A stretch of 9,539 bases of DNA from Acidobacteriota bacterium (lineage in GTDB: Bacteria; Acidobacteriota; Vicinamibacteria; Vicinamibacterales; JAHECP01). The DNA lies in NCBI GenBank assembly GCA_024641665.1, contig JAHECP010000003.1:37228-46766 (forward strand), in the 5' to 3' direction. This document shows positions 14 through 9,426 of the stretch, in pieces. Numbering within the stretch: position 1 is the stretch's first letter; every line of letters starts with the position of its first letter. The notes under the pieces were generated by a model, which worked only from the letters and a program-made list of their open reading frames with translations, made no database searches and was not told where the DNA came from. Position numbers and translations under genes: made by a program.

Positions 14-787
14 TCACGCGTACACGAGCGCAGGAATGCCGAGGTCGCGCACGCGGCGAGCGATCGTCTCGAGCCGATCGGCCGAGACGGCGCGCAGGAA
101 GGGAAACGCCGGCTGCTGGTCGATGGTGTAGATGTGCACTTCGCGGGGCTTGACGGCCTTCACGGCCGCGAGCCAGTGGGAGACGGCCTCCTGCCCGGTG
201 TTGTCGAGCCGGCCGCTGCGGTCGGTGACGAACATCGCCTGGATGCGCACGTCGTGCAGCTTCTTGAGACCCGACACGATCTTCTCGACGGGCACGGTCG
301 CGCCGTTGATGCGCTGCAGGGTCTCGTCGTCGCCGGCGTCCAGCTTCATGTGCCGTTCGTCGAGCTCGGCGAGCGCCTTGCGGATCGCCAGCCGGTCGAG
401 CGTCGTCGAGTTCGAGAGGATCACGAGCGGCAGCGACGGCGCCACCCGGTCGCGAACGGTGCGCAGGTCCCGCACGATGGCCGGGAACTCGGGGTGCAGC
501 GTCGGCTCGCCATGGCCGGCGATGGTCAGCCGCGCGATCGCCTCGCCGGCCGCGCCGCGCGCGGTGAGCTCTCGCTCGACGGTGCGGGCGATCTGCTCGC
601 GCTTCGGCCAGGCCGACGAGACCGGCAGCTTGCCGTCGGCCTCGAGCCGCGTCCAGCCGTACTGGCAGTAGGTGCAGTTGAAGGTGCAGACCTTCCGGTC
701 CGGGGGCTGTAGGTTCACGCCGAGCGACGGGCCGAACCGCCGGGACGCCACGGGGCCGTAGACGACGTTCCAGTGCAGTTCCACCAT
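14..787 (-). CDS. Radical SAM protein (COG0731/TYW1-like core fold; specific function unknown), 257 aa
   Basis: The canonical radical SAM cluster motif C-x3-C-x2-C (CTFNCTYCQYG) lies near the N-terminus. It is preceded by YGPVASRRFGPSLGVNL, which I recall as typical of this uncharacterised radical SAM subfamily. A GHGEPTL SAM-binding-like motif follows downstream. I chose the ATG at 787 because the SD-like AGAGG sits 5 nt upstream on the minus strand. The track ORF extends to a GTG at 838, but that start has no SD. Stop is TGA at 14-16. Confidence 0.8.
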   Translation of the reverse strand: MVELHWNVVYGPVASRRFGPSLGVNLQPPDRKVCTFNCTYCQYGWTRLEADGKLPVSSAWPKREQIARTVERELTARGAAGEAIARLTIAGHGEPTLHPEFPAIVRDLRTVRDRVAPSLPLVILSNSTTLDRLAIRKALAELDERHMKLDAGDDETLQRINGATVPVEKIVSGLKKLHDVRIQAMFVTDRSGRLDNTGQEAVSHWLAAVKAVKPREVHIYTIDQQPAFPFLRAVSADRLETIARRVRDLGIPALVYA

Positions 788-822
788 GACAGCCTCTGGG
801 AACGGGACCAAGGTGAGCCGGG

Positions 823-839
823 TGTGCGCCGCGCACACG
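823..839. promoter_or_regulatory. Perfect 17-bp palindrome GTGTGCGC-C-GCGCACAC, a candidate operator or small hairpin upstream of the radical SAM gene
   Basis: Read directly from the sequence: 823-830 is the exact reverse complement of 832-839. It lies 36-52 nt upstream of the preferred radical SAM start and about 70 nt downstream of the Crp-family gene stop. The half-sites TGTGC/GCACA resemble CRP-type TGTGA/TCACA but have N5 rather than N6 spacing. Confidence 0.3.
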
Positions 840-906: not shown

Positions 907-1608
907 CTAGGCGAGGGCGAGGTCCTCGAGCGCCTTGCGGTCCACGATGACGAACCCGTCTTTTTCGGTCCGAACCACGTCCTGCTTGCCCCAGCGGCTC
1001 ATGATCCGGATGGTGGTCTCGATGGTCGTGCCGGTGAGGTTGGCCAGCTCCTGCCGGGAAAGCGGCAGCGGGATGAAGAGGCCGTCGGCGCGCGCCTGGC
1101 CGTTCTCGTCGGCCAGCTTCAGGAAGAGGCGCGCGACCCGCGGCTCCACCCGGCCGCCGGTCAGCTCAGCCATCCGGTTGGTGAGCTCGATCAGCCGGTG
1201 CGTCAGGCCGAGCAGCAGACCGCGCACGAGCGAGGGGTGCTGCTCGAGCAGCGCGAAGAAGTCCTGCCGCGGGACGAGCACGCAGACCGTGTCCTCCATG
1301 GCGACGGCCGACGCGGGGAAGCGGCGGCCCTCGTAGACGGCCACCGCGCCGAACGGGTCGCCCACTCCGAACACTTCGAGGATGACGTCCTTGCCGGCGG
1401 GCGTGGACTTGCAGATCTTCACGCGGCCGCTGGCGATCGTGTAGAAGAAGTCCGACGGCGCGCCCTCGTCGAAGATGACGTCGTAGCGGGCGTACACCTT
1501 CACCCGCGCCACCGCCGCGAGCCGCCGGCGATCATCCGGGCTCAGCTTGCGGAAGATCGGTGTCGTGCGAAGCAGGTCCTCGGCGGATGCGGCCATGGCC
1601 GGGATCAT
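907..1608 (-). CDS. Crp/Fnr-family transcriptional regulator (cNMP-binding-like effector domain plus C-terminal HTH), about 233 aa
   Basis: The N-terminal beta-roll has the typical layout (IFRKLSPDDRRRL..., FFYTIASGRVKI, GDPFGAVAV). The C-terminal HTH is SRQELANLTGTTIETTIRIMSRW. There is no FNR-type N-terminal Cys cluster. The start is uncertain. The ATG at 1608 gives a family-typical length, but its GGAG is only 1 nt upstream. Alternative starts are the ATG at 1596 and the GTG at 1638. Stop is TAG at 907-909. Confidence 0.85.
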   Translation of the reverse strand: MIPAMAASAEDLLRTTPIFRKLSPDDRRRLAAVARVKVYARYDVIFDEGAPSDFFYTIASGRVKICKSTPAGKDVILEVFGVGDPFGAVAVYEGRRFPASAVAMEDTVCVLVPRQDFFALLEQHPSLVRGLLLGLTHRLIELTNRMAELTGGRVEPRVARLFLKLADENGQARADGLFIPLPLSRQELANLTGTTIETTIRIMSRWGKQDVVRTEKDGFVIVDRKALEDLALA

Positions 1609-1668
1609 ACTCCGGGCCGCCGCCGGACACTCCCGCACGGCCTGATCGGCGTCATGCCGCCGAACGCA

Positions 1669-1900: not shown

Positions 1901-1913
1901 GAAATCCCGGCGG
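1901..1913 (+). promoter_or_regulatory. Conserved far-upstream box GAAATCCCGGCGG (candidate activator/UAS site) for module 1
   Basis: It matches GGAATTCCGGCGG at 5548-5560 in 11 of 13 positions. The two boxes lie 127 and 130 nt upstream of their respective -24 GG dinucleotides. Confidence 0.3.
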
Positions 1914-1963
1914 GCGTTTGAGGCGGCGCCCAAACCGCATGCCGGGTTTCCGTCAGGGGTGTT

Positions 1964-1977
1964 GGATTTCTGAACGA
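1964..1977 (+). promoter_or_regulatory. Distal AT-rich box GGATTTCTGAACGA upstream of the module 1 promoter
   Basis: It resembles CGATTTTTCAACGG at 5611-5624 and the promoter-proximal boxes GGATTTTTCAGCGG (2016-2029) and GAATTTCTCAGCGG (5666-5679). The distal boxes sit 64 and 67 nt upstream of the -24 GG. They are conspicuously AT-rich in a GC-rich background. Confidence 0.35.
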
Positions 1978-2026
1978 AAATGGCCGGAAAAAGCAGATCT
2001 GTCGTGGTGCCTGGTGGATTTTTCAG

Positions 2027-2042
2027 CGGTACGGGCTTTGCT
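2027..2042 (+). promoter_or_regulatory. Candidate sigma-54 (RpoN) -24/-12 promoter of module 1: CGGTACG-GGCT-TTGCT
   Basis: GG at 2028-2029 and GC at 2040-2041 are separated by exactly 10 nt. About 10 of 12 informative positions match TGGCACG-N4-TTGCW. The same element with the same spacing is retained upstream of the paralogous module at 5677-5692, while the flanking sequence has diverged. Confidence 0.6.
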
Positions 2043-2163
2043 CGTGGTGGGCATAGCCCATACGGGAGGTGGGCACGGGTGGAGCCCTGCACTCGGGCTC
2101 CGGCGGTTCACGTAGTCATAGTCCACGTCGCGGCCGCGTCCCGAGGCCGGAGAGGAGATCTAC

Positions 2164-3147
2164 ATGGGTCGCTGGAAGCGAACCCTTGGCCCTGCGGTTC
2201 CCATCGCCGGTGCGTTGGCGTTGTGGATCGTGGCGGTGGCGACGGTGCCGGCGGAAACGACGCCGGCGGCCGCCACGGTGACGAGCGGCGCGCAGGCGTC
2301 GGCCCAGGCCAGTGGGTACGTGGGGGAGGAGACCTGTCTCACCTGCCACGACGACAAGAAAGCCATCCACGGCACCCCGCACGGGATGACGGGCGACGCG
2401 AAGACGCCCGCCGCCACGCACGGGTGTGAGTCGTGCCACGGTCCCGGCCAGGCGCACGTCGACGGCGGCGGGGACAAGACGAAGATCCGGACGTTCGGCA
2501 CGCTGACGGCGAGCGAGGCGAGTGCCGTCTGCACGACGTGCCACAACCGGGGCGAGCACCTGATGTGGGACAGCAGCGCGCACGAGAGCCGCGGCGTGGG
2601 CTGCACGACCTGCCACAGCGTGCACAGCTTCAAGTCGCAGCAGGCGCAGCTCAAGAAGGCCACGATCAGCGAGACGTGCGCCACCTGCCACCGCGACAAG
2701 GTGATGAAGACGAAGCGGTCGGCGCACATGCCGGTCTCGAACGATCCGAACCGTCCGGCGAACCACATGGAGTGCACGACCTGCCACAACCCGCATGGCA
2801 GCACGAACGAGAAGATGCTGCGGACGGGGACGTCGGTGAACGACCTCTGCACGAGCTGCCACACGGAGAAGCGCGGGCCGTATCTGTGGGAGCACGCGGC
2901 GGTGGTGGACAGCTGCACCAACTGCCACGACCCGCACGGCTCGTCGTTCGACCGGATGCTCGTGACCAAGGCGCCGATGCTCTGCCAGCGTTGCCACGTG
3001 ACGACGCGGCACCCACCGACGGTGTACGACAACTACGCACGGGAGAACACGACGAGCGCCAACCGCATCGTCGGGCGGTCGTGCGTGGTGTGCCACCAGA
3101 ACATCCACGGGTCCAACGCGGCGTCGGGCGAGTTCTTCCTGCGGTAA
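2164..3147 (+). CDS. Periplasmic decaheme c-type cytochrome, MtrA/DmsE/PioA/MtoA family (copy 1), 327 aa
   Basis: It has ten CXXCH motifs: CLTCH, CESCH, CTTCH, CTTCH, CATCH, CTTCH, CTSCH, CTNCH, CQRCH, CVVCH. It has an N-terminal signal peptide (MGRWKRTLGPAVPIAGALALWIVAVATVPA). The SD AGGAG lies 6 nt upstream of the ATG. The C-terminal half is CTSCHTEKRGPYLWEHA...CTNCHDPHGS..DRML....P.LCQRCH...GRSC.VCHQNIHGSN..SG.FFLR. This closely matches my recollection of Shewanella MtrA (CYSCHAEKRGPKLWEHAPV..., ...[24 protein letters not shown]). Stop is TAA at 3145-3147. Confidence 0.95.
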   Translation: MGRWKRTLGPAVPIAGALALWIVAVATVPAETTPAAATVTSGAQASAQASGYVGEETCLTCHDDKKAIHGTPHGMTGDAKTPAATHGCESCHGPGQAHVDGGGDKTKIRTFGTLTASEASAVCTTCHNRGEHLMWDSSAHESRGVGCTTCHSVHSFKSQQAQLKKATISETCATCHRDKVMKTKRSAHMPVSNDPNRPANHMECTTCHNPHGSTNEKMLRTGTSVNDLCTSCHTEKRGPYLWEHAAVVDSCTNCHDPHGSSFDRMLVTKAPMLCQRCHVTTRHPPTVYDNYARENTTSANRIVGRSCVVCHQNIHGSNAASGEFFLR

Positions 3148-3164
3148 CCGAGGAGGCCAAGAAG

Positions 3165-5351
3165 ATGCGAACGAAATTGCTTGCAGTTGCAGCCGCACTT
3201 CTGCTCGCCTCGGCTGGGACGACCTTTGCCCAGGACCAGGCGGCGGACACGGCATTCAACCAGAACATCTGGGCGAACATCGGGTTCAGCACGTCCAGCG
3301 TGACGGGCGACCGGGCTCGCTTCGACCGGTTCAGCGACCTGCGGAAGAACGGGCTGGCGCTGGACCTGTTCGGCGAGAAGGTCACGCCGGACCTCAGGGT
3401 CCGGTTCGGCGGGCAGCACGTGGGCTACGACGACCAGATGCTCGTCGCCGCGATCAACGCCGGCGGCAAGGTGAAGGCGTCGGTGAGCTTCGACGGCCAG
3501 CCGCTCAACTACGGCTTCAAGGACGACGGCTACGTCCGGACGCCGTACGACGCCGACTACAAGCTGGACTACGCGACGCGGGCGGCGGTGCAGGCCGGGA
3601 CGGCGGTGGCCGTGCCCGGCAACCCCAGCCAGCGGACGTCCTTCCTGGGCTTCTACCACCCGATCGACCTGAAGTCGCTCCGGAACACGGTCGACGGCAA
3701 GTTCCTCTTCTCGCCGACCGAGCAGGTGGACCTGTCGTTCCACGTGAAGACGTTCACCCGGCAGGGCACGCAGCCGTGGGGCGCGTCGTACGGCTTCAGC
3801 CAGGCGGTGGAGATCGCGGCGCCGGTGGACAACCGGACGTCGGACGTGGAAGGCAAGCTCGAGTGGGGCAACCAGCGCGGCGCGGTGAACGTCGGCTTCG
3901 CGCACTCGCAGTTCGACAACCACATCCAGGAGCTGGTGTGGGACAGCCCCTACCGGGTGACCGACACGACGGCCTCGAACGCCTACACGACGGGCAACGG
4001 CACGTCGCAGGGCCGGCTGTCGCTGCCGCCGAGCAACACCGAGGACACGTTCAGCGGCACGGCGGTGGGCCGGATGGCCCGCCGGACCACAGTGGCCGCG
4101 AACTTCGCGGTGTCGACGCTGAAGCAGAACGGCACGATCATTCCCTTCACGATCAACACGGCGATTCCGACCATCCCGCTCGAGCGCGACACGGCCGAGG
4201 CGAAGGTGGACGTGGCCACGTTCGGCCTCAACTTCACGTCCCGGCCCGCGCCGAAGCTCTGGCTGAAGGGGCGCTATCGCTACTTCAATCACGACAACAA
4301 GACGCCGACGTTCAACGGCGAGGAATACGTGCGGCTCGACCAGGTGCTGGAAGAGACCGGCGGTGAGACCGACCAGCTCAACATCACCCAGAACCAGCTC
4401 ACCCTGGGGATGGCGTACAACGCGCTGCCGCACGCCTCGTTCAAGGTGGACTACGGCCGGAACGCGATCGACCGCACGCACCGTGAGTTCGCCACGACGA
4501 CCGAGAACTCGATCAAGTTCTCGGTGGACTCGGTCGGCTCGCCGCTCCTGACGCTGCGCTCGTCCTACGAGTATGCCAAGCGGACGGGCAGCGGGTTCGA
4601 CGAGGCGATCCTGACCGACGCCGGCCAGCAGCCGGACATGCGGCACTACGACGTGGCCAACCGCAACCGGAACCGCGGCACGGTGCTGTTCACGGTGACG
4701 CCGAACGAGAAGACCGACGTCACGTTCTCGGTGGCGGCCGGCAAGGACACGTACCCGGGCCAGGAGTTCGGCCTGCTGAACAACAACAACCAGGCCTACA
4801 CGGTCGGGTTCGACGTCTTCCCGAACGACATGGTGACGTTCAGCGTCCTGTACGGCTACGAGAAGTACACCAACATGATGAAGTCGCGTAACGCCAGTCC
4901 GGGGGCCACGTTTGTCGACCCGGCCTACGACTGGTACGACAACGCGGACGAGAAGGTGAACAGCTTCTCGGCCAGTCTGGACCTCATCAAGGCGATCCAG
5001 AAGACCGACATCCGGTTCGGCTACGACTACAGCAAGTCGGACGCGAACTTCATCTACAGCGGTCCGAACATCGACCGCCTGACGGCGCTCGGTCAGTTCG
5101 ACCAGCTGCCGACCAATCTGAACCGGTTCAACCGTGCCACCGTGGACGTGCGGTACTACTTCACCTCCCGGACCGCGTTGAGCCTGGCCTATTGGTTCGA
5201 CAAGTACGATGTGGACGACTTCGCGACGCCCGAGCCCGCGCCTGGCGGGAGCCAGCCCCGGGTCGACCCGCAGGGCGCCCTGCTGCTCGGCTACTTCGTA
5301 CGGCCCTACACGGCGCACACCGGCTTCTTCCGGGTGCTCATGTTCTTCTAG
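3165..5351 (+). CDS. Decaheme-associated outer-membrane beta-barrel, MtrB/PioB family (copy 1), 728 aa
   Basis: It starts 17 nt after the cytochrome stop, with the SD AGGAGG 8 nt upstream of the ATG at 3165. The signal peptide is MRTKLLAVAAALLLASAGTTFA-QD. The composition is rich in Y/G/D/N/T with alternating amphipathic strands. It ends in an aromatic beta-signal (GFFRVLMFF). It has no cysteine. Motifs such as GRYRYFNHDNKTPTF and LAYWFDKYDVDDFA resemble my recollection of MtrB (SYDYYDRDNNTQ, FDYKIENYKDNDAA). The track ORF 2433-5351 is only an upstream open extension of this frame. Confidence 0.92.
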   Translation: MRTKLLAVAAALLLASAGTTFAQDQAADTAFNQNIWANIGFSTSSVTGDRARFDRFSDLRKNGLALDLFGEKVTPDLRVRFGGQHVGYDDQMLVAAINAGGKVKASVSFDGQPLNYGFKDDGYVRTPYDADYKLDYATRAAVQAGTAVAVPGNPSQRTSFLGFYHPIDLKSLRNTVDGKFLFSPTEQVDLSFHVKTFTRQGTQPWGASYGFSQAVEIAAPVDNRTSDVEGKLEWGNQRGAVNVGFAHSQFDNHIQELVWDSPYRVTDTTASNAYTTGNGTSQGRLSLPPSNTEDTFSGTAVGRMARRTTVAANFAVSTLKQNGTIIPFTINTAIPTIPLERDTAEAKVDVATFGLNFTSRPAPKLWLKGRYRYFNHDNKTPTFNGEEYVRLDQVLEETGGETDQLNITQNQLTLGMAYNALPHASFKVDYGRNAIDRTHREFATTTENSIKFSVDSVGSPLLTLRSSYEYAKRTGSGFDEAILTDAGQQPDMRHYDVANRNRNRGTVLFTVTPNEKTDVTFSVAAGKDTYPGQEFGLLNNNNQAYTVGFDVFPNDMVTFSVLYGYEKYTNMMKSRNASPGATFVDPAYDWYDNADEKVNSFSASLDLIKAIQKTDIRFGYDYSKSDANFIYSGPNIDRLTALGQFDQLPTNLNRFNRATVDVRYYFTSRTALSLAYWFDKYDVDDFATPEPAPGGSQPRVDPQGALLLGYFVRPYTAHTGFFRVLMFF

Positions 5352-5366
5352 GCGCGAGACGCGACC

Positions 5367-5409
5367 GCCCCGGCCGGGGCCGGGCGTCCGGGATCCTCCC
5401 CCCCGGACG
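5367..5409 (+). terminator. Weak GC-rich hairpins after porin 1 with no T-tract (possibly a decayed terminator)
   Basis: GCCCCGGCCGGGGC (5367-5380) is a 14-nt perfect palindrome, giving a 5-bp stem with a GGCC loop. CGTCCGGG (5385-5392) pairs with CCCGGACG (5402-5409) across a 9-nt loop. Neither hairpin is followed by a U-run. The CCCCGGCC core resembles the left arm of the strong terminator at 9044-9056. Confidence 0.25.
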
Positions 5410-5547
5410 TCCGGTCTCCTGCCGGGTTCACCAGCCGTCATCGACGCACCTCGGTCGGGCCCCTCCGTTTCGGCCCGGTTTTCGGCCCGTGCCTCACGAC
5501 TGCCGGACCTCCGGCGAGGCGGGTTCGGGTGTCGTCCCGCCCTCTAC

Positions 5548-5560
5548 GGAATTCCGGCGG
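5548..5560 (+). promoter_or_regulatory. Conserved far-upstream box GGAATTCCGGCGG for module 2; contains the perfect palindrome CGGAATTCCG
   Basis: It is the paralogous counterpart of 1901-1913 and lies at an equivalent distance (130 nt) from the -24 GG. CGGAATTCCG at 5547-5556 is a perfect 10-bp palindrome. Confidence 0.3.
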
Positions 5561-5610
5561 TTCTTCCGTGCCAGCTCGACTGCTCCAGATGTACTGGGGT
5601 GGTCTATGTA

Positions 5611-5624
5611 CGATTTTTCAACGG
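5611..5624 (+). promoter_or_regulatory. Distal AT-rich box CGATTTTTCAACGG upstream of the module 2 promoter
   Basis: It is the counterpart of 1964-1977 and lies 67 nt upstream of the -24 GG. An imperfect inverted repeat follows: TCAACACG (5629-5636) / CGCGTTGA (5647-5654). Confidence 0.35.
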
Positions 5625-5676
5625 CCGGTCAACACGTTCGGGGTGCCGCGTTGAAGGTCGTTGCAGAATTTCTCAG

Positions 5677-5692
5677 CGGTACACCCCTTGCT
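5677..5692 (+). promoter_or_regulatory. Candidate sigma-54 (RpoN) -24/-12 promoter of module 2: CGGTACA-CCCC-TTGCT
   Basis: GG at 5678-5679 and GC at 5690-5691 are separated by exactly 10 nt. About 9 of 12 informative positions match the consensus. A conserved CGGGAGG lies 22 nt downstream of the -12 GC in both copies (2063-2069 and 5713-5719). Confidence 0.6.
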
Positions 5693-5803
5693 GAACCCTG
5701 CGCGGTTTCCTGCGGGAGGGAGACCGTCCGGGCCCGAACGCCCGGCAGGTACGTGCACTCATTACGTCGTGGCCGCGTCCCGAGGCCAGGGGAGGAGATC
5801 AAC

Positions 5804-6763
5804 ATGGGTCGCTTCAAGCGAACCCTTGGTCCTGCGGTTCCCATCGCCGGTGCGCTGGCGTTGTGGATCGTGGCGGTGGCGACGGTGCCGGCGGCGACGA
5901 CGCCGGCGGCGGCCACCGTGACGACCGGCACACAGGCGCCGGCCCAGGTCAACGGGTACGTGGGGGAGGAGACGTGTCTCACCTGCCACGAAGCACAGAG
6001 CTACAAGGGCACGGCGCACGCCTTCGCCGCTGACGAACGGACGCCGGCGGCGACGCACGGGTGCGAGAGCTGCCACGGACCCGGCCAGGCCCACGTGGAC
6101 GGCGGCGGGGACAAGACGAAGATCGTCAATCCGAAGAACCTGACGCCGCGCGAGGCGAGCGAGATCTGCACGACGTGTCACGACCGCAAGGAGCACGCGC
6201 TCTGGTCCGGCAGCCAGCACGACTCGCGCAACGTGGGCTGCACGACCTGCCACAGCGTGCACACGCCGAAGGGTCCCAAGCAGCTGAAGGAGGCCACCGA
6301 GCCGGCGTTGTGCGTGAAGTGCCACGCGAACATCGTGAACAAGCAGCACCGCTTCAACCACATGCCGGTGCGCGAGGGCGAGCTGGTGTGCACCTCGTGC
6401 CACAACGTGCACGGCTCGGCCAACGTCAAGCTGCTGCGCGCGGGAACGACGGTGGACGAGAGCTGCACGAGCTGCCACACGGAGAAGCGCGGCCCGTATC
6501 TGTGGGAGCACGCGCCGGTGGCCGAGAGCTGCGTGACGTGTCACGACCCGCACGGGTCGAACAATGACCGCATGCTCGTGGCGAAGCAGCCGTACCTCTG
6601 CCAGCGCTGCCACGTGACCTCGCGCCATCCTCCAACCATCTACGACGGCTATCTGCTGAAGAATTCGAGCAACGCCAACAAGATCTTCGGGCGGTCGTGC
6701 ACGATCTGCCACCAGGAGATCCACGGCTCGAATTCGCCGTCGGGCAAGGCGTTCCTGCGTTAG
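5804..6763 (+). CDS. Periplasmic decaheme c-type cytochrome, MtrA/DmsE/PioA/MtoA family (copy 2), 319 aa
   Basis: It has ten CXXCH motifs: CLTCH, CESCH, CTTCH, CTTCH, CVKCH, CTSCH, CTSCH, CVTCH, CQRCH, CTICH. The signal peptide is nearly identical to copy 1. The SD GGAGGAG lies 6 nt upstream of the ATG at 5804. The track ORF 5192-6763 is an R/P/G-rich upstream open extension. Stop is TAG at 6761-6763. Confidence 0.95.
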   Translation: MGRFKRTLGPAVPIAGALALWIVAVATVPAATTPAAATVTTGTQAPAQVNGYVGEETCLTCHEAQSYKGTAHAFAADERTPAATHGCESCHGPGQAHVDGGGDKTKIVNPKNLTPREASEICTTCHDRKEHALWSGSQHDSRNVGCTTCHSVHTPKGPKQLKEATEPALCVKCHANIVNKQHRFNHMPVREGELVCTSCHNVHGSANVKLLRAGTTVDESCTSCHTEKRGPYLWEHAPVAESCVTCHDPHGSNNDRMLVAKQPYLCQRCHVTSRHPPTIYDGYLLKNSSNANKIFGRSCTICHQEIHGSNSPSGKAFLR

Positions 6764-6778
6764 GTGAGGAGGAGTGCG

Positions 6779-9016
6779 ATGCGCAAAACAGTGTGGATGA
6801 CGACTGCCGCGCTTGTGCTGGCCTCCGCGATGGCGCAGGCCCAGCCACAGGCGACCGAACCGGTCGGGGTGACCCCGACGCTGGGTTCGGTGGACTTCGG
6901 CGTGCGGATTGGCTCGGCGAGCGGTGACGAGGCGCGCTTCGAGCGCTACCGCGACCTGCGGACGGGGCTCTTCACGAACCTCTCGCTCGACAAGGCCACC
7001 GACACGTATCTGCTGAACATCAAGGCCGAGAACATCGGCTACAACGACCAGGCCTACGACGGCCTGTACCGGAACGGCAAGCTGAAGGCGACGTTCTCGT
7101 GGAACTCGACGCCGCTCAACTACAGCTACGAGTCGATGACGCCGTATTCGGGCCCGGTCATCTCGGGCAACACGGCGACCTACTCGCTCAACCCGGTCGT
7201 GCAGAACGGCGTGCAGACGGGCGTGTTCGCGGGCCTGCCCGCCAACGCGGCCGCGCTGGCGACGCCGTCGATCTACCGCGCGCTGGCCAACCCGTTCAAC
7301 CTGACCCAGCGGCGCGACGTCGTCAACGTCGGCCTGGCCTACGCGGCGACCAAGGCGGTCGACCTCGACTTCGGGTTCAGCACCACCAAGAAGCACGGCT
7401 ACCAGCCGTACGGCGCGTCGTTCGCGTTCGTCACGGGCGTCGAGCTGCCGCTGCCGATCGACCAGCGGACCAACGACGTGACGGCGGGCCTCGAGTGGGC
7501 GAACGCGAAGGGCATGTTCCGGATCGCCTACGACGGGTCGTACTTCACGAACGACATCCAGACGCTCGTCTGGAGCAGCCCGTCCTACGGCCCGAACGAC
7601 ACGACCAACTCGTCGGGCTACAGCAACGGGCAGGGCGCCTCGACGGGCCGCATGGCGCTCGCGCCGAACAGCCACATGAACGTGGTGAGCGTGACCGGGC
7701 TCCGCAAACTCGCCCACCACAGCACCATCAACGGCGTGTTCTCCATCGGCGACTCGAAGCAGAACGGCGAGCTGATCCCGTTCACGATCAACACCTTCAT
7801 CCTCGACAACCCGTCGCTCTATCCGCTCGAGCTCGAGCGGGCGACGGCCGAGGCCGGCGCGCGCGCCTACAACGCGGCCCTCAACTTCACCTCGCGGCCC
7901 AACCAGTACGTGGGCTTCACGGCGAAGTACCGCTACAACAAGCACGACAACACGACCCCGACGTTCAACGGGGAAGAGTACGTGCGGTTCGACCAGGTGT
8001 GGGAGGAGACCGGCGGCGAGACCGAGCAGTTCGACATCACGCACAACACGTTCAACGCCGACCTCTCGTTCACGCCCATCGCCTTCACCACCCTGCGCGT
8101 CGGCTATGGCTTCGACAAGACCGACCATACCAGCCGGGCCTACGCCGACCTGAAGGACAACACGCTCCGCGCCTCGATCGACACGGTGGGGAACCAGTAC
8201 ATCTCCCTCCGCGGCACCTACGAGCACACGACCCGCAAGGGCGAGGGCTTCGACGAGGCCGCGATCGTCGACGGCGGCGCGCAGCCCGACCTGCGGTTCT
8301 TCGACGACGCGAGCCGCAAGCGGGACCGGGGCTCGATCGTGCTCACCCTGAGCCCGACCTCGATGGTCAACGTGAACGTGATCTACGCCAACGGCAAGGA
8401 CACCTACAACGACCCGGCGCAGGAGTTCGGCCTGCTCGACAACAGCAACAGCTCGTACAACGTCGGGCTGGACCTCACGCCGACCGCGCAGGTGGCGTTC
8501 GGGGTCTCCTACGGCCAGGACGAGTACAAGGCGCTGCAGGAATCGCGCAACGCCAACCCGGCGCCCGACCCGTCGTGGACGGACCCGAACCGCAACTGGT
8601 CGCTCAACAACAAGGAGAAGGTCAAGAACGCCAGCGCGTATCTCGACCTGATGCAGGTGATCGTGCGGACCGACCTCCGGTTCGGCTTCGACTTCAGCGA
8701 CTCGAACAACGCCTTCGTCTTCGGCGGCCCGCGCATCGCGGCCCTCGCGGCCATCGGGCAGTTCCTGCCGCTGCCGGCGGTCACCAACCAGTGGCAGCGC
8801 GCCACGGTGGACCTGAAGCACATGTTCACCGCCAAGACCGGCATCGCCCTGGCCTACTGGTACGAGAAGTTCGACGTCGTGGACTTCGCGACCATCGACC
8901 TGCCCGGCGAGCCCGGCGTGCCGCGCATCGACTACCTCGGCGAGATCAACACGGGCTACGGCAACCGCCCCTACAAGGGGAACACCGGCTTCATCCGGCT
9001 GCTGTACCTGTTCTAG
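6779..9016 (+). CDS. Decaheme-associated outer-membrane beta-barrel, MtrB/PioB family (copy 2), 745 aa
   Basis: The ATG at 6779 has the SD GGAGG 6 nt upstream and begins 15 nt after the cytochrome stop. The signal peptide is MRKTVWMTTAALVLASAMA-QA. It has no cysteine and ends in a C-terminal beta-signal (GFIRLLYLF). It is collinear with copy 1. The GTG at 6764 in the track abuts the stop codon and precedes the SD, so I rejected it as the start. Confidence 0.92.
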   Translation: MRKTVWMTTAALVLASAMAQAQPQATEPVGVTPTLGSVDFGVRIGSASGDEARFERYRDLRTGLFTNLSLDKATDTYLLNIKAENIGYNDQAYDGLYRNGKLKATFSWNSTPLNYSYESMTPYSGPVISGNTATYSLNPVVQNGVQTGVFAGLPANAAALATPSIYRALANPFNLTQRRDVVNVGLAYAATKAVDLDFGFSTTKKHGYQPYGASFAFVTGVELPLPIDQRTNDVTAGLEWANAKGMFRIAYDGSYFTNDIQTLVWSSPSYGPNDTTNSSGYSNGQGASTGRMALAPNSHMNVVSVTGLRKLAHHSTINGVFSIGDSKQNGELIPFTINTFILDNPSLYPLELERATAEAGARAYNAALNFTSRPNQYVGFTAKYRYNKHDNTTPTFNGEEYVRFDQVWEETGGETEQFDITHNTFNADLSFTPIAFTTLRVGYGFDKTDHTSRAYADLKDNTLRASIDTVGNQYISLRGTYEHTTRKGEGFDEAAIVDGGAQPDLRFFDDASRKRDRGSIVLTLSPTSMVNVNVIYANGKDTYNDPAQEFGLLDNSNSSYNVGLDLTPTAQVAFGVSYGQDEYKALQESRNANPAPDPSWTDPNRNWSLNNKEKVKNASAYLDLMQVIVRTDLRFGFDFSDSNNAFVFGGPRIAALAAIGQFLPLPAVTNQWQRATVDLKHMFTAKTGIALAYWYEKFDVVDFATIDLPGEPGVPRIDYLGEINTGYGNRPYKGNTGFIRLLYLF

Positions 9017-9043
9017 GACCCGGCTCCCCCGTCCTCCTCGGGA

Positions 9044-9079
9044 CCCCGGCCACCCCACCGCGGGGTGGCCGGGGTTTTT
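9044..9079 (+). terminator. Rho-independent terminator after porin 2
   Basis: CCCCGGCCACCCC (9044-9056) pairs perfectly with GGGGTGGCCGGGG (9062-9074), giving a 13-bp stem around a 5-nt loop (ACCGC). TTTTT follows immediately at 9075-9079. The hairpin begins 28 nt after the TAG at 9014-9016. Confidence 0.85.
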
Positions 9080-9084
9080 GTACA

Positions 9085-9426
9085 ATGCCCCCCATGGTGC
9101 GCACAGCCATCGCCGTTCTCCTCGGGGTCGCCCTGGGTATCGCCGCGCTCGGCGCGCAGGCGCCCGATTCGCAGGTCGAGAAGGGCAAGGAGGTCTTCAC
9201 GCGGATGAAGTGCCTCCTCTGCCACAAGTTGGGGGACAAGGGGGGCGCCCTGGCGCCGGTCCTGGACGGGGTGGCCCGGCGGCGCGACGCCGAGTCCATG
9301 CGCCGACTGCTGGAGCACCCCGACAAGGAGATGAAGGACCCCCAGTACAAGGTGACGATGCCCGCGTTCCCGTTCAAGGACGGGGAGCTGGACGAGCTGG
9401 TCGCCTACCTCCAGACCCTCAAGTGA
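9085..9426 (+). CDS. Small secreted monoheme class I c-type cytochrome, 113 aa (110 aa if it starts at the ATG at 9094)
   Basis: It has a single CXXCH (CLLCH) about 20 residues after a signal peptide (MVRTAIAVLLGVALGIAALGA-QA). A distal Met candidate sits in the class I-typical context KVTMPAFPF. The C-terminal helix is ELDELVAYLQTLK. Two in-frame ATGs occur at 9085 and 9094, and neither has a convincing SD. Stop is TGA at 9424-9426. The track shows this only as the tail of the spurious 7099-9426 ORF. Confidence 0.85.
   Translation: MPPMVRTAIAVLLGVALGIAALGAQAPDSQVEKGKEVFTRMKCLLCHKLGDKGGALAPVLDGVARRRDAESMRRLLEHPDKEMKDPQYKVTMPAFPFKDGELDELVAYLQTLK

Follow-up and report, generated by a model that had tools for sequence, protein, structure and literature searches.

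Why should one bacterial locus carry two complete sets of genes for conducting electrons across the outer membrane, for how long have the two stood side by side, and how might they be controlled? The question is raised by a 9,539 bp stretch of the genome of a soil member of the Acidobacteriota (Vicinamibacterales; assembly GCA_024641665.1, contig JAHECP010000003.1, positions 37,228–46,766), called the window below, which has a G+C content of approximately 68%. The window contains two complete promoter-cytochrome-porin modules of the MtrAB/PioAB type, in each of which a decahaem cytochrome gene (A) is followed by an outer-membrane porin gene (B). For comparison, a pattern-seeded scan with one genome per species provided 50 related loci, nearly all of them Acidobacteriota/Vicinamibacterales metagenome-assembled genomes (MAGs). 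The related loci and contig stretches compared with the window are designated by L-numbers (L002, L053 and so on). The explanation that we favour, with a probability of roughly 0.8, is that of a conserved Vicinamibacterales locus with two sigma-54-driven A-B conduit operons, which would be ancient paralogues partly reshaped by gene conversion. The two modules are composed of the following features, with lengths in amino acids (aa).

2028–2042, forward strand: putative sigma-54-type −24/−12 promoter of module 1, GGTACGGGCTTTGCT (motif search, conserved position)
2043–2163, forward strand: 5′ leader of module 1 (alignment of nine leaders, box search, covariance model)
2164–3147, forward strand: A1, periplasmic decahaem c-type cytochrome, 327 aa (TIGR03508, phmmer match to 6r2q_A)
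3165–5351, forward strand: B1, predicted MtrB/PioB-family outer-membrane beta-barrel, 728 aa, with a signal peptide (PF11854, AlphaFold2, Foldseek)
5678–5692, forward strand: putative sigma-54-type −24/−12 promoter of module 2, GGTACACCCCTTGCT (motif search, alignment)
5693–5803, forward strand: 5′ leader of module 2 (covariance model, minimum free energy fold)
5804–6763, forward strand: A2, decahaem cytochrome, 319 aa (TIGR03508, 10 CxxCH motifs)
6779–9016, forward strand: B2, predicted MtrB/PioB-family barrel, 745 aa (PF11854, AlphaFold2, Foldseek)

The four A and B genes and a monohaem cytochrome c gene further downstream were all found on the forward strand in a six-frame listing and translation of open reading frames (ORFs). 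The stop codon of A and the start codon of B are separated by 17 nt in module 1 and 15 nt in module 2, with a ribosome-binding site (RBS) in each gap; an alternative GTG start of B2 exists at position 6764. The same arrangement, A directly upstream of a co-oriented B, was observed in approximately 50 related loci. An earlier reading of the sequence made without database searches (the sequence-only reading) had described two head-to-tail promoter-leader-cytochrome-porin units at an offset of about 3.64 kb, flanked neither by insertion sequences nor by terminal repeats. This layout was borne out by the ORFs, the profile matches and the barrel models. The starts of A are 3640 nt apart, those of B 3614 nt and the stops of B 3665 nt, and the collinearity expected on a dot plot was present as direct repeats spanning the entire unit at a spacing of 3616–3665 nt. 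The ORF, profile and repeat searches of the window revealed no transposase-like ORF and no terminal repeat flanking the units.

A1 and A2 are decahaem cytochromes of the MtrA/DmsE/PioA/MtoA family. Each contains exactly 10 CxxCH motifs, and the BLASTP identity between them (66%) agrees with the two-thirds, with all 10 haems retained, that had been estimated by eye. The DmsE-family assignment proposed at the same time held as well, both proteins scoring above the curated cut-off (192.2 bits) of the NCBIfam decahaem model TIGR03508 with 240.3 and 254.7 bits. A1 matched chain A of the Shewanella Mtr complex (6r2q_A) over nearly its full length in a phmmer search (E 6e-58). With the Geobacter GSU2203 model NF041028, the A proteins obtained 245 and 260 bits, under the cut-off of 325.

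The B proteins, which share 41% identity over their full length, are predicted to fold as large MtrB-like barrels. The Pfam profile PF11854 (MtrB_PioB) covered nearly the whole protein in both cases, with 269.5 bits for B1 and 252.5 bits for B2 (cut-off 23). Membership in the MtrB/PioB family, as claimed from the sequence alone, stood with this profile; it did not with the stricter NCBIfam model TIGR03509, the cut-off of which (240.05 bits) was reached neither by B1 (215) nor by B2 (213.5), a point to be counted against the assignment. The B proteins gave weak matches to the Geobacter GSU2204 model. B1 matched 6r2q_B by sequence (E 3e-15), and public annotation already labels homologous porins as MtrB/PioB family. 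AlphaFold2 models built on an 89-sequence alignment had a mean predicted local distance difference test score (pLDDT) of 81 for B1 and 83 for B2. In Foldseek comparisons with the PDB the top match was 6r2q_B for both, with E 3e-35 and template modelling (TM) scores of 0.78/0.87 for B1, and E 9e-37 and TM-scores of 0.77/0.88 for B2, at an identity with MtrB of approximately 16–17% in the structural alignments. The next matches, 22-strand TonB-dependent receptors, had TM-scores of about 0.4. These models are consistent with the large barrel that had been expected, a fold that has 26 strands in MtrB.

The idea that the divergence of B1 and B2 is concentrated in surface loops found no support: non-strand positions (50% identity) are more conserved than the predicted strands (37%). 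A near-invariant stretch, FNGEEYVR.DQV.EETGGET, was visible in B across the family.

The two modules are old paralogues and not the outcome of a recent amplification. Distance trees (neighbour-joining with Kimura distances and 100–200 bootstraps, not maximum likelihood) of the A and of the B proteins from approximately 50 Vicinamibacterales loci were concordant. Clade I, with 94–100% support, contained A1/B1, both L002 copies, L003, L070 and one metagenome-contig module. Clade II, with 86–98% support, contained A2/B2, L053, L054 and many other Vicinamibacterales proteins. Because each clade contains other species, the copies split before many of these species did. The preference for an old over a recent duplication expressed in the sequence-only reading agrees with this separation into two clades, at 86–100% bootstrap and with several other species in each.

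The number of modules per slot ranged from one to four, in a census from pattern-seeded scans. In L053 the slot occupied by the two modules of the window contains just one, of clade II (A 84% identical to A2, B 61% to B2); L003 and L070 have one clade I module each, and L008 has three modules. On contig Ga0326597_10001082 apparently four A-B modules lie between crp and the cytochrome c gene, in the order clade III, I, III, II and each with its own leader, clade I being upstream of clade II as in the window. This contig was seen as two non-overlapping stretches (L073 4969–9425 and L058 3–9844), and their junction is presumed. We regard the locus as a tandem family of one to four members which, judging from these comparisons, are gained and lost. 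The ratio of non-synonymous to synonymous divergence (dN/dS) was 0.18 for A1 versus L002a, 0.33 for A2 versus L053 and 0.20 for B1 versus L002a, and both copies are thus under purifying selection.

Tandem repeats are often misassembled, and A1 and A2 share 91% identity over their first ~200 nt, two circumstances that would suit an assembly artefact, a recent amplification or a decaying pseudogene in place of one copy. Such an origin is extremely improbable in view of the divergence of the copies, only 66% (A) and 41% (B) identical in protein, and of their membership in different clades. Each copy was in addition assembled independently on other contigs: two different Logan contigs from run SRR12825371 (L001 and L052) encode proteins 100% identical to B1 and to B2, respectively, and B2 was also found on a 90.5 kb NCBI contig. 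As to a pseudogene, both frames are intact, with 10 haem motifs in each cytochrome and the signs of purifying selection given above. The reading as old paralogues is therefore retained.

The unequal divergence of the two partners had been taken as a sign of sub-functionalisation. The imbalance itself is real (66% in A, 41% in B). It is uninformative about sub-functionalisation, as the same imbalance was observed between orthologues: identity was 93% for A versus 85–89% for B with L002, 84% versus 61% with L053, and 68% versus 49% with L003. It reflects the tight packing of ten haems in approximately 300 residues and is no indication of specialisation, which the copies may or may not have undergone.

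One segment of the modules departs from the overall level of divergence.

2126–2365 paired with 5765–6001, forward strand: gene-conversion tract (60-nt window identity, synonymous divergence)

Over this segment, which corresponds to the last ~40 nt of the leader and to A codons 1 to ~67, the identity was 84–97% in 60-nt sliding windows, and it then dropped to approximately 65%. The synonymous divergence (dS) between A1 and A2 was 0.175 for codons 1–62 and 0.549 for the rest. In orthologous pairs dS was uniform along the gene (0.35 and 0.38 for A2/L053, 0.73 and 0.60 for A1/L003), so that the 5′ region is not intrinsically slow-evolving. Residues 1–57 of A1 were 88% identical to A2 and 56% to the clade-mate L003, whereas residues 58–216 were 61% identical to A2 and 66% to L003. 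Within the tract A2 was closer to A1 than to its L053 orthologue: the mature part of A2 belongs to clade II, and its first ~62 codons are homogenised with those of A1. The pattern is that of a short gene-conversion tract over the leader end and the signal-peptide/linker region.

A more extensive exchange seems to have occurred in the closest relative, L002 (CAWEUE010000003.1), whose A protein is 93% identical to A1 and whose gene order is radical SAM, crp, A-B, A-B, cytochrome c. The coding regions of both its modules (6362–9549 and 10001–13188) are of the A1B1 type, and its second leader is orthologous to the second leader of the window. The L002 copies are mosaic, 78–100% identical and including ~600 identical nt. 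The dS between them climbs from 0 to 0.32 along B, staying under the between-species dS, and the 3′ portion of the second copy stands out by an elevated dN/dS (0.44). Our reading is that, in the lineage of L002, the first module overwrote the second. An unlikely alternative would place the event on the side of the window, where an A2B2 cassette, acquired by transfer from a different member of the Vicinamibacterales or by ectopic recombination, would have replaced the second of two A1B1 copies inherited from the common ancestor with L002, keeping the original leader and ~60 codons. The A1B1-type coding region behind the orthologous second leader of L002 and the A1-like 5′ end of A2 are in agreement with such a replacement, as is the 3′ part of B, in which the second copy of L002 is about equally far from its neighbour and from the B1 of the window (identity 0.73–0.79 versus 0.83–0.93). 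The copy-to-copy dS in L002 is nevertheless below the between-species value in every segment (0.058 versus 0.21 for A, 0.17 versus 0.29–0.32 for B), and the extra distance of the second copy is non-synonymous (dN/dS 0.44), which fits conversion or duplication inside the L002 lineage. Replacement is also at odds with the single A2B2-type module of L053, in the same slot and with the same type of N-terminus, and with the four-module contig, which also has clade I upstream of clade II. Overwriting inside the L002 lineage is retained in what follows.

How is each module transcribed? The motif GGYAY-N5-TTGCT has exactly two matches in the window, at positions 2028–2042 and 5678–5692, against a chance expectation of 0.03, and these lie 137 nt (A1) and 127 nt (A2) 5′ of the start codon. 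The −24/−12 motif was scored out of 11, with a background rate of 4% per 350 nt for scores of at least 9/11. Such scores were found at −119 to −141 in 9/9 A genes of the MGRxxRTLGP type (genome loci and L053). A pattern scan of metagenomes returned 46 stretches, of which 16 were true leaders and the remainder chance matches; the motif was present at −117 to −137 in 14/14 metagenome leaders with sufficient upstream sequence, 13 of them scoring at least 9/11 and one scoring 8. GG, A and TTGCT were invariant in the leader alignment. Genes for sigma-54 activators are located 2–4 kb upstream of crp in 11 loci (L002, L003, L005–L007, L035, L048, L053, L064, L070 and L073). They encode 334 aa proteins with an AAA+ (Sigma54_activat) and an HTH_8 domain, without a receiver domain, and often occur as two paralogues. 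The presence of a separate promoter for each module, which would depend on sigma-54, is well supported by these comparisons, and the sigma-54-like promoter that the sequence-only reading had placed ahead of each cytochrome is strengthened by the conserved position of the motif and the nearby activators. A consensus scan of the window gave no sigma-70 promoter.

In L053 (1–2300), L002 (787–3411) and L073 (708–3201), two activator paralogues, 70% identical, flank a DUF302 gene. These paired proteins of ~334 aa, devoid of a sensory domain and encoded upstream of the radical SAM and crp genes, resemble activators of the PspF or HrpR/HrpS type. Activator binding sites were looked for upstream of the promoters, and the repeats seen there were unconvincing. 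Near promoter 1 there are a direct repeat, TGTTGGATTTCTGAACG / TGGTGGATTTTTCAGCG, at 1960–1976 and 2012–2028 (52-nt spacing, the second copy overlapping the −24 element), and an imperfect 30-nt inverted repeat at 1896–1956; either may be a site for an activator or for the integration host factor (IHF).

Between promoter and start codon lies a leader with conserved elements. Nine aligned leaders share, 3′ of the −12 box, the sequence CGGGAG, an invariant 17-nt box, GGCYGCGTCCCGARGCC, and the RBS. The box is found twice in the window, where 0.01 occurrences are expected. In leader 1, hairpin 1 (2056–2074, loop ACGGGAG) was read by eye from the sequence; it is followed by a variable middle hairpin, by hairpin 2, which is the invariant box GGCCGCGTCCCGAGGCC at 2132–2148, and by the RBS GGAGAGGAG. 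In leader 2, hairpin 1 covers 5704–5725 (GGTTTCC-TGCGGGAG-GGAGACC) and is present in the minimum free energy (MFE) fold; the middle hairpin, hairpin 2 with the box at 5771–5787, and the RBS GGGGAGGAG follow. The flanks of CGGGAG vary by species and always pair as a stem of 5–7 bp (GCCCAT/GTGGGC, GGTTTCC/GGAGACC, GGCGCTC/GAGCGCC, GGTTCTG/CAGGACC, GACGCTC/GAGCGTC). Within the box, GGCY pairs with RGCC and encloses the loop GCGUCCCGA, whose UCCCG is the complement of the CGGGA in loop 1. In the variable middle of the leaders, a semi-conserved element of the type CACTCAT or CATCAT was visible at 2110–2125 and 5745–5760, and in related leaders too. A further hairpin, at codons 2–7 (TCGCT-N3-AGCGA), was rejected: its covariation was inconsistent, and conservation at the protein level explains the pattern.

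A covariance model was built from eight leaders, as MAFFT alignments put hairpin 1 out of register in several of them. In the 0.92 Mb searched it found 27 instances, each ending at the ATG of an A gene: the two leaders of the window and 25 in L002–L091, including all four modules of the four-module contig. Leader 2 was the best match (96 bits, 5702–5806), and leader 1 was matched at 2079–2166. The model misplaces hairpin 1 in leader 1 of the window, L002a and L060, in which the loop is 7 nt long. In helix 1, six of seven pairs showed changes on both sides. The cells of the alignment paired in 97% of cases, as compared to 83% after shuffling (none of 500 shuffles reached the observed value) and 27–54% with a slid partner column. 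No match to Rfam was found in the whole window at E ≤ 1.

The leader is probably a cis-regulatory RNA, apparently undescribed, which would act in the transcript. Three points tell against this. The alignment used for covariation was fitted to its own model, so that the counts are somewhat inflated, although compensatory stems are evident in the raw leader sequences. The single-sequence fold energies of the two leaders were no better than those of shuffles (z −0.3 and −0.4). Since neither loop varies, pairing between the two is beyond the reach of covariation. The second of these points, together with the invariance of both boxes across divergent species and their layout as an inverted pair (CGGGA ... 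TCCCG) ~70 bp apart, would also be expected if CGGGAG and GGCYGCGTCCCGARGCC were DNA operators bound by a regulator, for example the Crp/Fnr protein encoded next to the array, with no role as RNA. We consider operators improbable: the elements are inside the transcript, 3′ of the −12 box, and the flanks of CGGGAG change freely yet stay paired through compensation. Compensatory changes of this kind imply a folded strand and not a sequence-specific operator. For the regulatory RNA, a broader scheme can be drawn, in which the leader would constitute a new class whose two loops kiss or exchange to control translation or mRNA stability, kept uniform by gene conversion and making the array a regulated, expandable set of wires tied to FeoAB. 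This scheme is tentative, and we hold it for somewhat less likely than even.

Two structured segments were observed at the ends of the units.

5369–5426, forward strand: long G+C-rich hairpin without a U-run, after B1 (fold energy, inverted repeats I2 and I3)
9043–9080, forward strand: putative intrinsic terminator after B2, 14-bp G+C stem followed by U5 (fold energy)

The fold of segment 5352–5450 had an energy of −63.8 kcal/mol (z −4.75) and that of segment 9017–9090 an energy of −43.2 kcal/mol (z −3.6). A terminator consensus scan gave nothing on the forward strand; the terminator at 9043–9080 was found by folding instead. The hairpin after B1 may be a terminator or an insulator between the modules. 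Because of the separate promoters and of the hairpins or terminator at the unit ends, the organisation suggests two separate transcription units.

The remaining genes of the window flank the array on both sides.

14–838, reverse strand: radical SAM protein, 274 aa, gene conserved 5′ of the array (Pfam Radical_SAM, E 3.7e-15)
907–1638, reverse strand: Crp/Fnr-family transcription regulator, 243 aa, transcribed divergently from module 1 (Pfam cNMP_binding and HTH_Crp_2)
9085–9426, forward strand: monohaem class I cytochrome c, 113 aa, with a signal peptide and the haem motif CLLCH (Pfam Cytochrom_C)

The order of the locus is conserved: sigma-54 activators, radical SAM, Crp/Fnr, (A-B)n, cytochrome c, feoB, feoA and nosL, with n = 2 in the genome of the window. 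The radical SAM gene is syntenic in L002, L006, L007, L053 and L064, and relatives of it lie near the array in L005, L019, L046 and L048. A Crp/Fnr gene adjoins the first A in ten loci (L002, L003, L004, L006, L007, L053, L064, L068, L070 and L073), and the cytochrome c gene is kept 3′ of the last B in many. Beyond cytochrome c, a contig from the window's own sample (L052, 2861–7212) encodes FeoB, FeoA, a NosL-family protein and a radical SAM/SPASM protein. The order feoB, feoA, nosL was conserved in at least 12 related loci (in L002 at 13237–16840).

We propose the following model for the function of the locus. If A and B assemble like their homologues in the Shewanella Mtr complex, the structure of which has been solved, the haems of A would form a chain lodged inside the barrel of B. 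Along this chain electrons would pass through the outer membrane, connecting a carrier in the periplasm, probably the product of the adjacent cytochrome c gene, with a presumed extracellular redox substrate. Each module would be a two-gene operon with its own sigma-54 promoter and a structured leader of ~110–120 nt, bearing a 5′ hairpin with the CGGGAG loop and, just before the ribosome-binding site, a second hairpin with the UCCCG loop. Clades I and II are ancient paralogues in a family that gains and loses copies and is subject to gene conversion, which in the window has homogenised no more than the leader end and the signal-peptide region.

Some further observations weigh on the other side of this model. 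The window itself contains neither a sigma-54 gene nor an activator gene, the activators being known from related loci. The census of copy number, drawn from pattern-seeded scans, is not exhaustive. The possibility that the cytochrome c is an orthologue of MtoD was examined and abandoned, as no MtoD structure was among its PDB matches at E ≤ 1. All the support is computational, and the organism belongs to an uncultured MAG lineage.

In which direction would the electrons flow? No other multihaem ORF was found in the window, in L002, L003, L052, L053, L058 and L073, or within 10 kb in the relatives, and no tetrahaem NapC/CymA-like ORF was seen in the same check. The lack of a further multihaem gene implies that of MtrC, and the architecture, as far as the gene content tells, is that of PioAB/MtoAB. 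In the periplasm, the conduits would probably exchange electrons with the adjacent monohaem cytochrome c. Characterised conduits of the PioAB/MtoAB type draw electrons from Fe(II), minerals or electrodes (PMC6831781, PMC12016527, PMC3274759). We slightly favour electron uptake, that is, the oxidation of extracellular Fe(II) or minerals, because the combination of a small soluble cytochrome c with no MtrC-type surface cytochrome best matches PioAB/MtoAB; this preference stays short of an even chance.

The genes beyond the array could speak for the opposite direction. Cytochrome c, feoB, feoA and nosL stand directly 3′ of the last B, both in the window's sample and in 12 or more of the related loci. 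The Vicinamibacteria in culture live as aerobic heterotrophs in soil, where the iron accessible to them is Fe(III). The conduits might then work outward, reducing extracellular Fe(III) to Fe(II) for import by FeoAB (reductive iron acquisition) or serving iron respiration. This is possible and rather unlikely: the MtrC-type surface cytochrome was not found in the window or within 10 kb in the related loci, a strong terminator is predicted between B2 and the cytochrome c and feo genes, and the synthesis of several decahaem proteins would presumably be costly under iron scarcity. Moreover, the characterised systems consisting of MtrAB only, PioAB and MtoAB, take up electrons (PMC6831781, PMC12016527). 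Uptake remains the direction that we slightly prefer.

The kind of conduit is already known, and tandem paralogues of conduits have precedents in Shewanella and Geobacter. The closest likeness is to PioAB of Rhodopseudomonas palustris TIE-1 and MtoAB of Sideroxydans/Gallionella, in which a decahaem MtrA homologue is followed by an MtrB/PioB porin in the absence of MtrC (PMC6831781, PMC3274759, PMC11511738). A small soluble periplasmic redox protein is encoded nearby in both cases, a monohaem cytochrome c here and MtoD in mto, the two not being detectably related beyond the class I fold. The modules of the window differ in belonging to another phylum, in forming tandem arrays of one to four paralogues and in having the putative sigma-54 promoters and structured leader; no gene for a high-potential iron-sulphur protein (HiPIP, PioC) or of the CymA type was seen.

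The likeness to Shewanella MtrCAB/MtrDEF (6R2Q) lies in the match of A with MtrA (E 6e-58), in that of the B models with the MtrB barrel (TM 0.77–0.88), and in the presence of two paralogous clusters side by side, which in Shewanella come from a duplication of the whole cluster (PMC8805035). In contrast, the window is devoid of an MtrC/MtrF/OmcA partner, the identity of B with MtrB is only ~16–17%, and each module, with a promoter to itself, is one unit of a direct tandem repeat. The tandem conduit copies of Geobacter are near-identical, in contrast to the identities of 66% (A) and 41% (B) in the window. The porins and cytochromes of the Geobacter Pcc conduits are of families unrelated to those described here, the periplasmic cytochrome having 8 haems and the outer one 12; what they have in common with the window is the presence in one locus of two tandem complete porin-cytochrome clusters, ombB-omaB-omcB and ombC-omaC-omcC in Geobacter sulfurreducens (PMC4282303). 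Within the phylum Acidobacteriota, Mtr-family conduits were described as the MtrCAB 'Group 5' of Acidobacteriia (Baker et al. 2022; PMC8805035). These come from Bryobacterales/Acidobacteriia and include MtrC, unlike the loci described here, which are from the class Vicinamibacteria, lack MtrC and are arrayed. Earlier surveys noted homologues of PioA/MtoA in Acidobacteria (PMC10654088, PMC3669403). The literature searched provided no description of the Vicinamibacterales arrays, of their sigma-54 control or of the leader.

The added interest of the locus resides in the variable array, the concerted evolution of the 5′ ends and the candidate new leader RNA. Vicinamibacterales are abundant in soils and the subsurface, and few have been cultivated. 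Our comparison suggests that many of them carry one to four conduits of the MtrAB/PioAB type, controlled by sigma-54 and adjacent to genes for ferrous-iron uptake; should this hold, the group may contribute to the redox cycling of iron outside the cell. The array would be a clear case of cytochrome-porin modules that arise by duplication, drift apart, disappear again and are in part homogenised by gene conversion. To our knowledge, little has been established about post-transcriptional control in the synthesis of multihaem cytochromes, for which the leader would be a testable candidate.

Two observations were made in the 3′ part of locus L002. At 13237–15690 a cytochrome c domain and FeoB are encoded in one frame of 817 aa, which represents either a fusion or a sequencing or assembly error; the two are separate genes in the window's own genome. 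Further downstream, on the reverse strand (16893–20459), genes for a DUF6755 protein, a Rieske protein and a molybdopterin oxidoreductase are found in an arrangement resembling that of arsenite oxidase.

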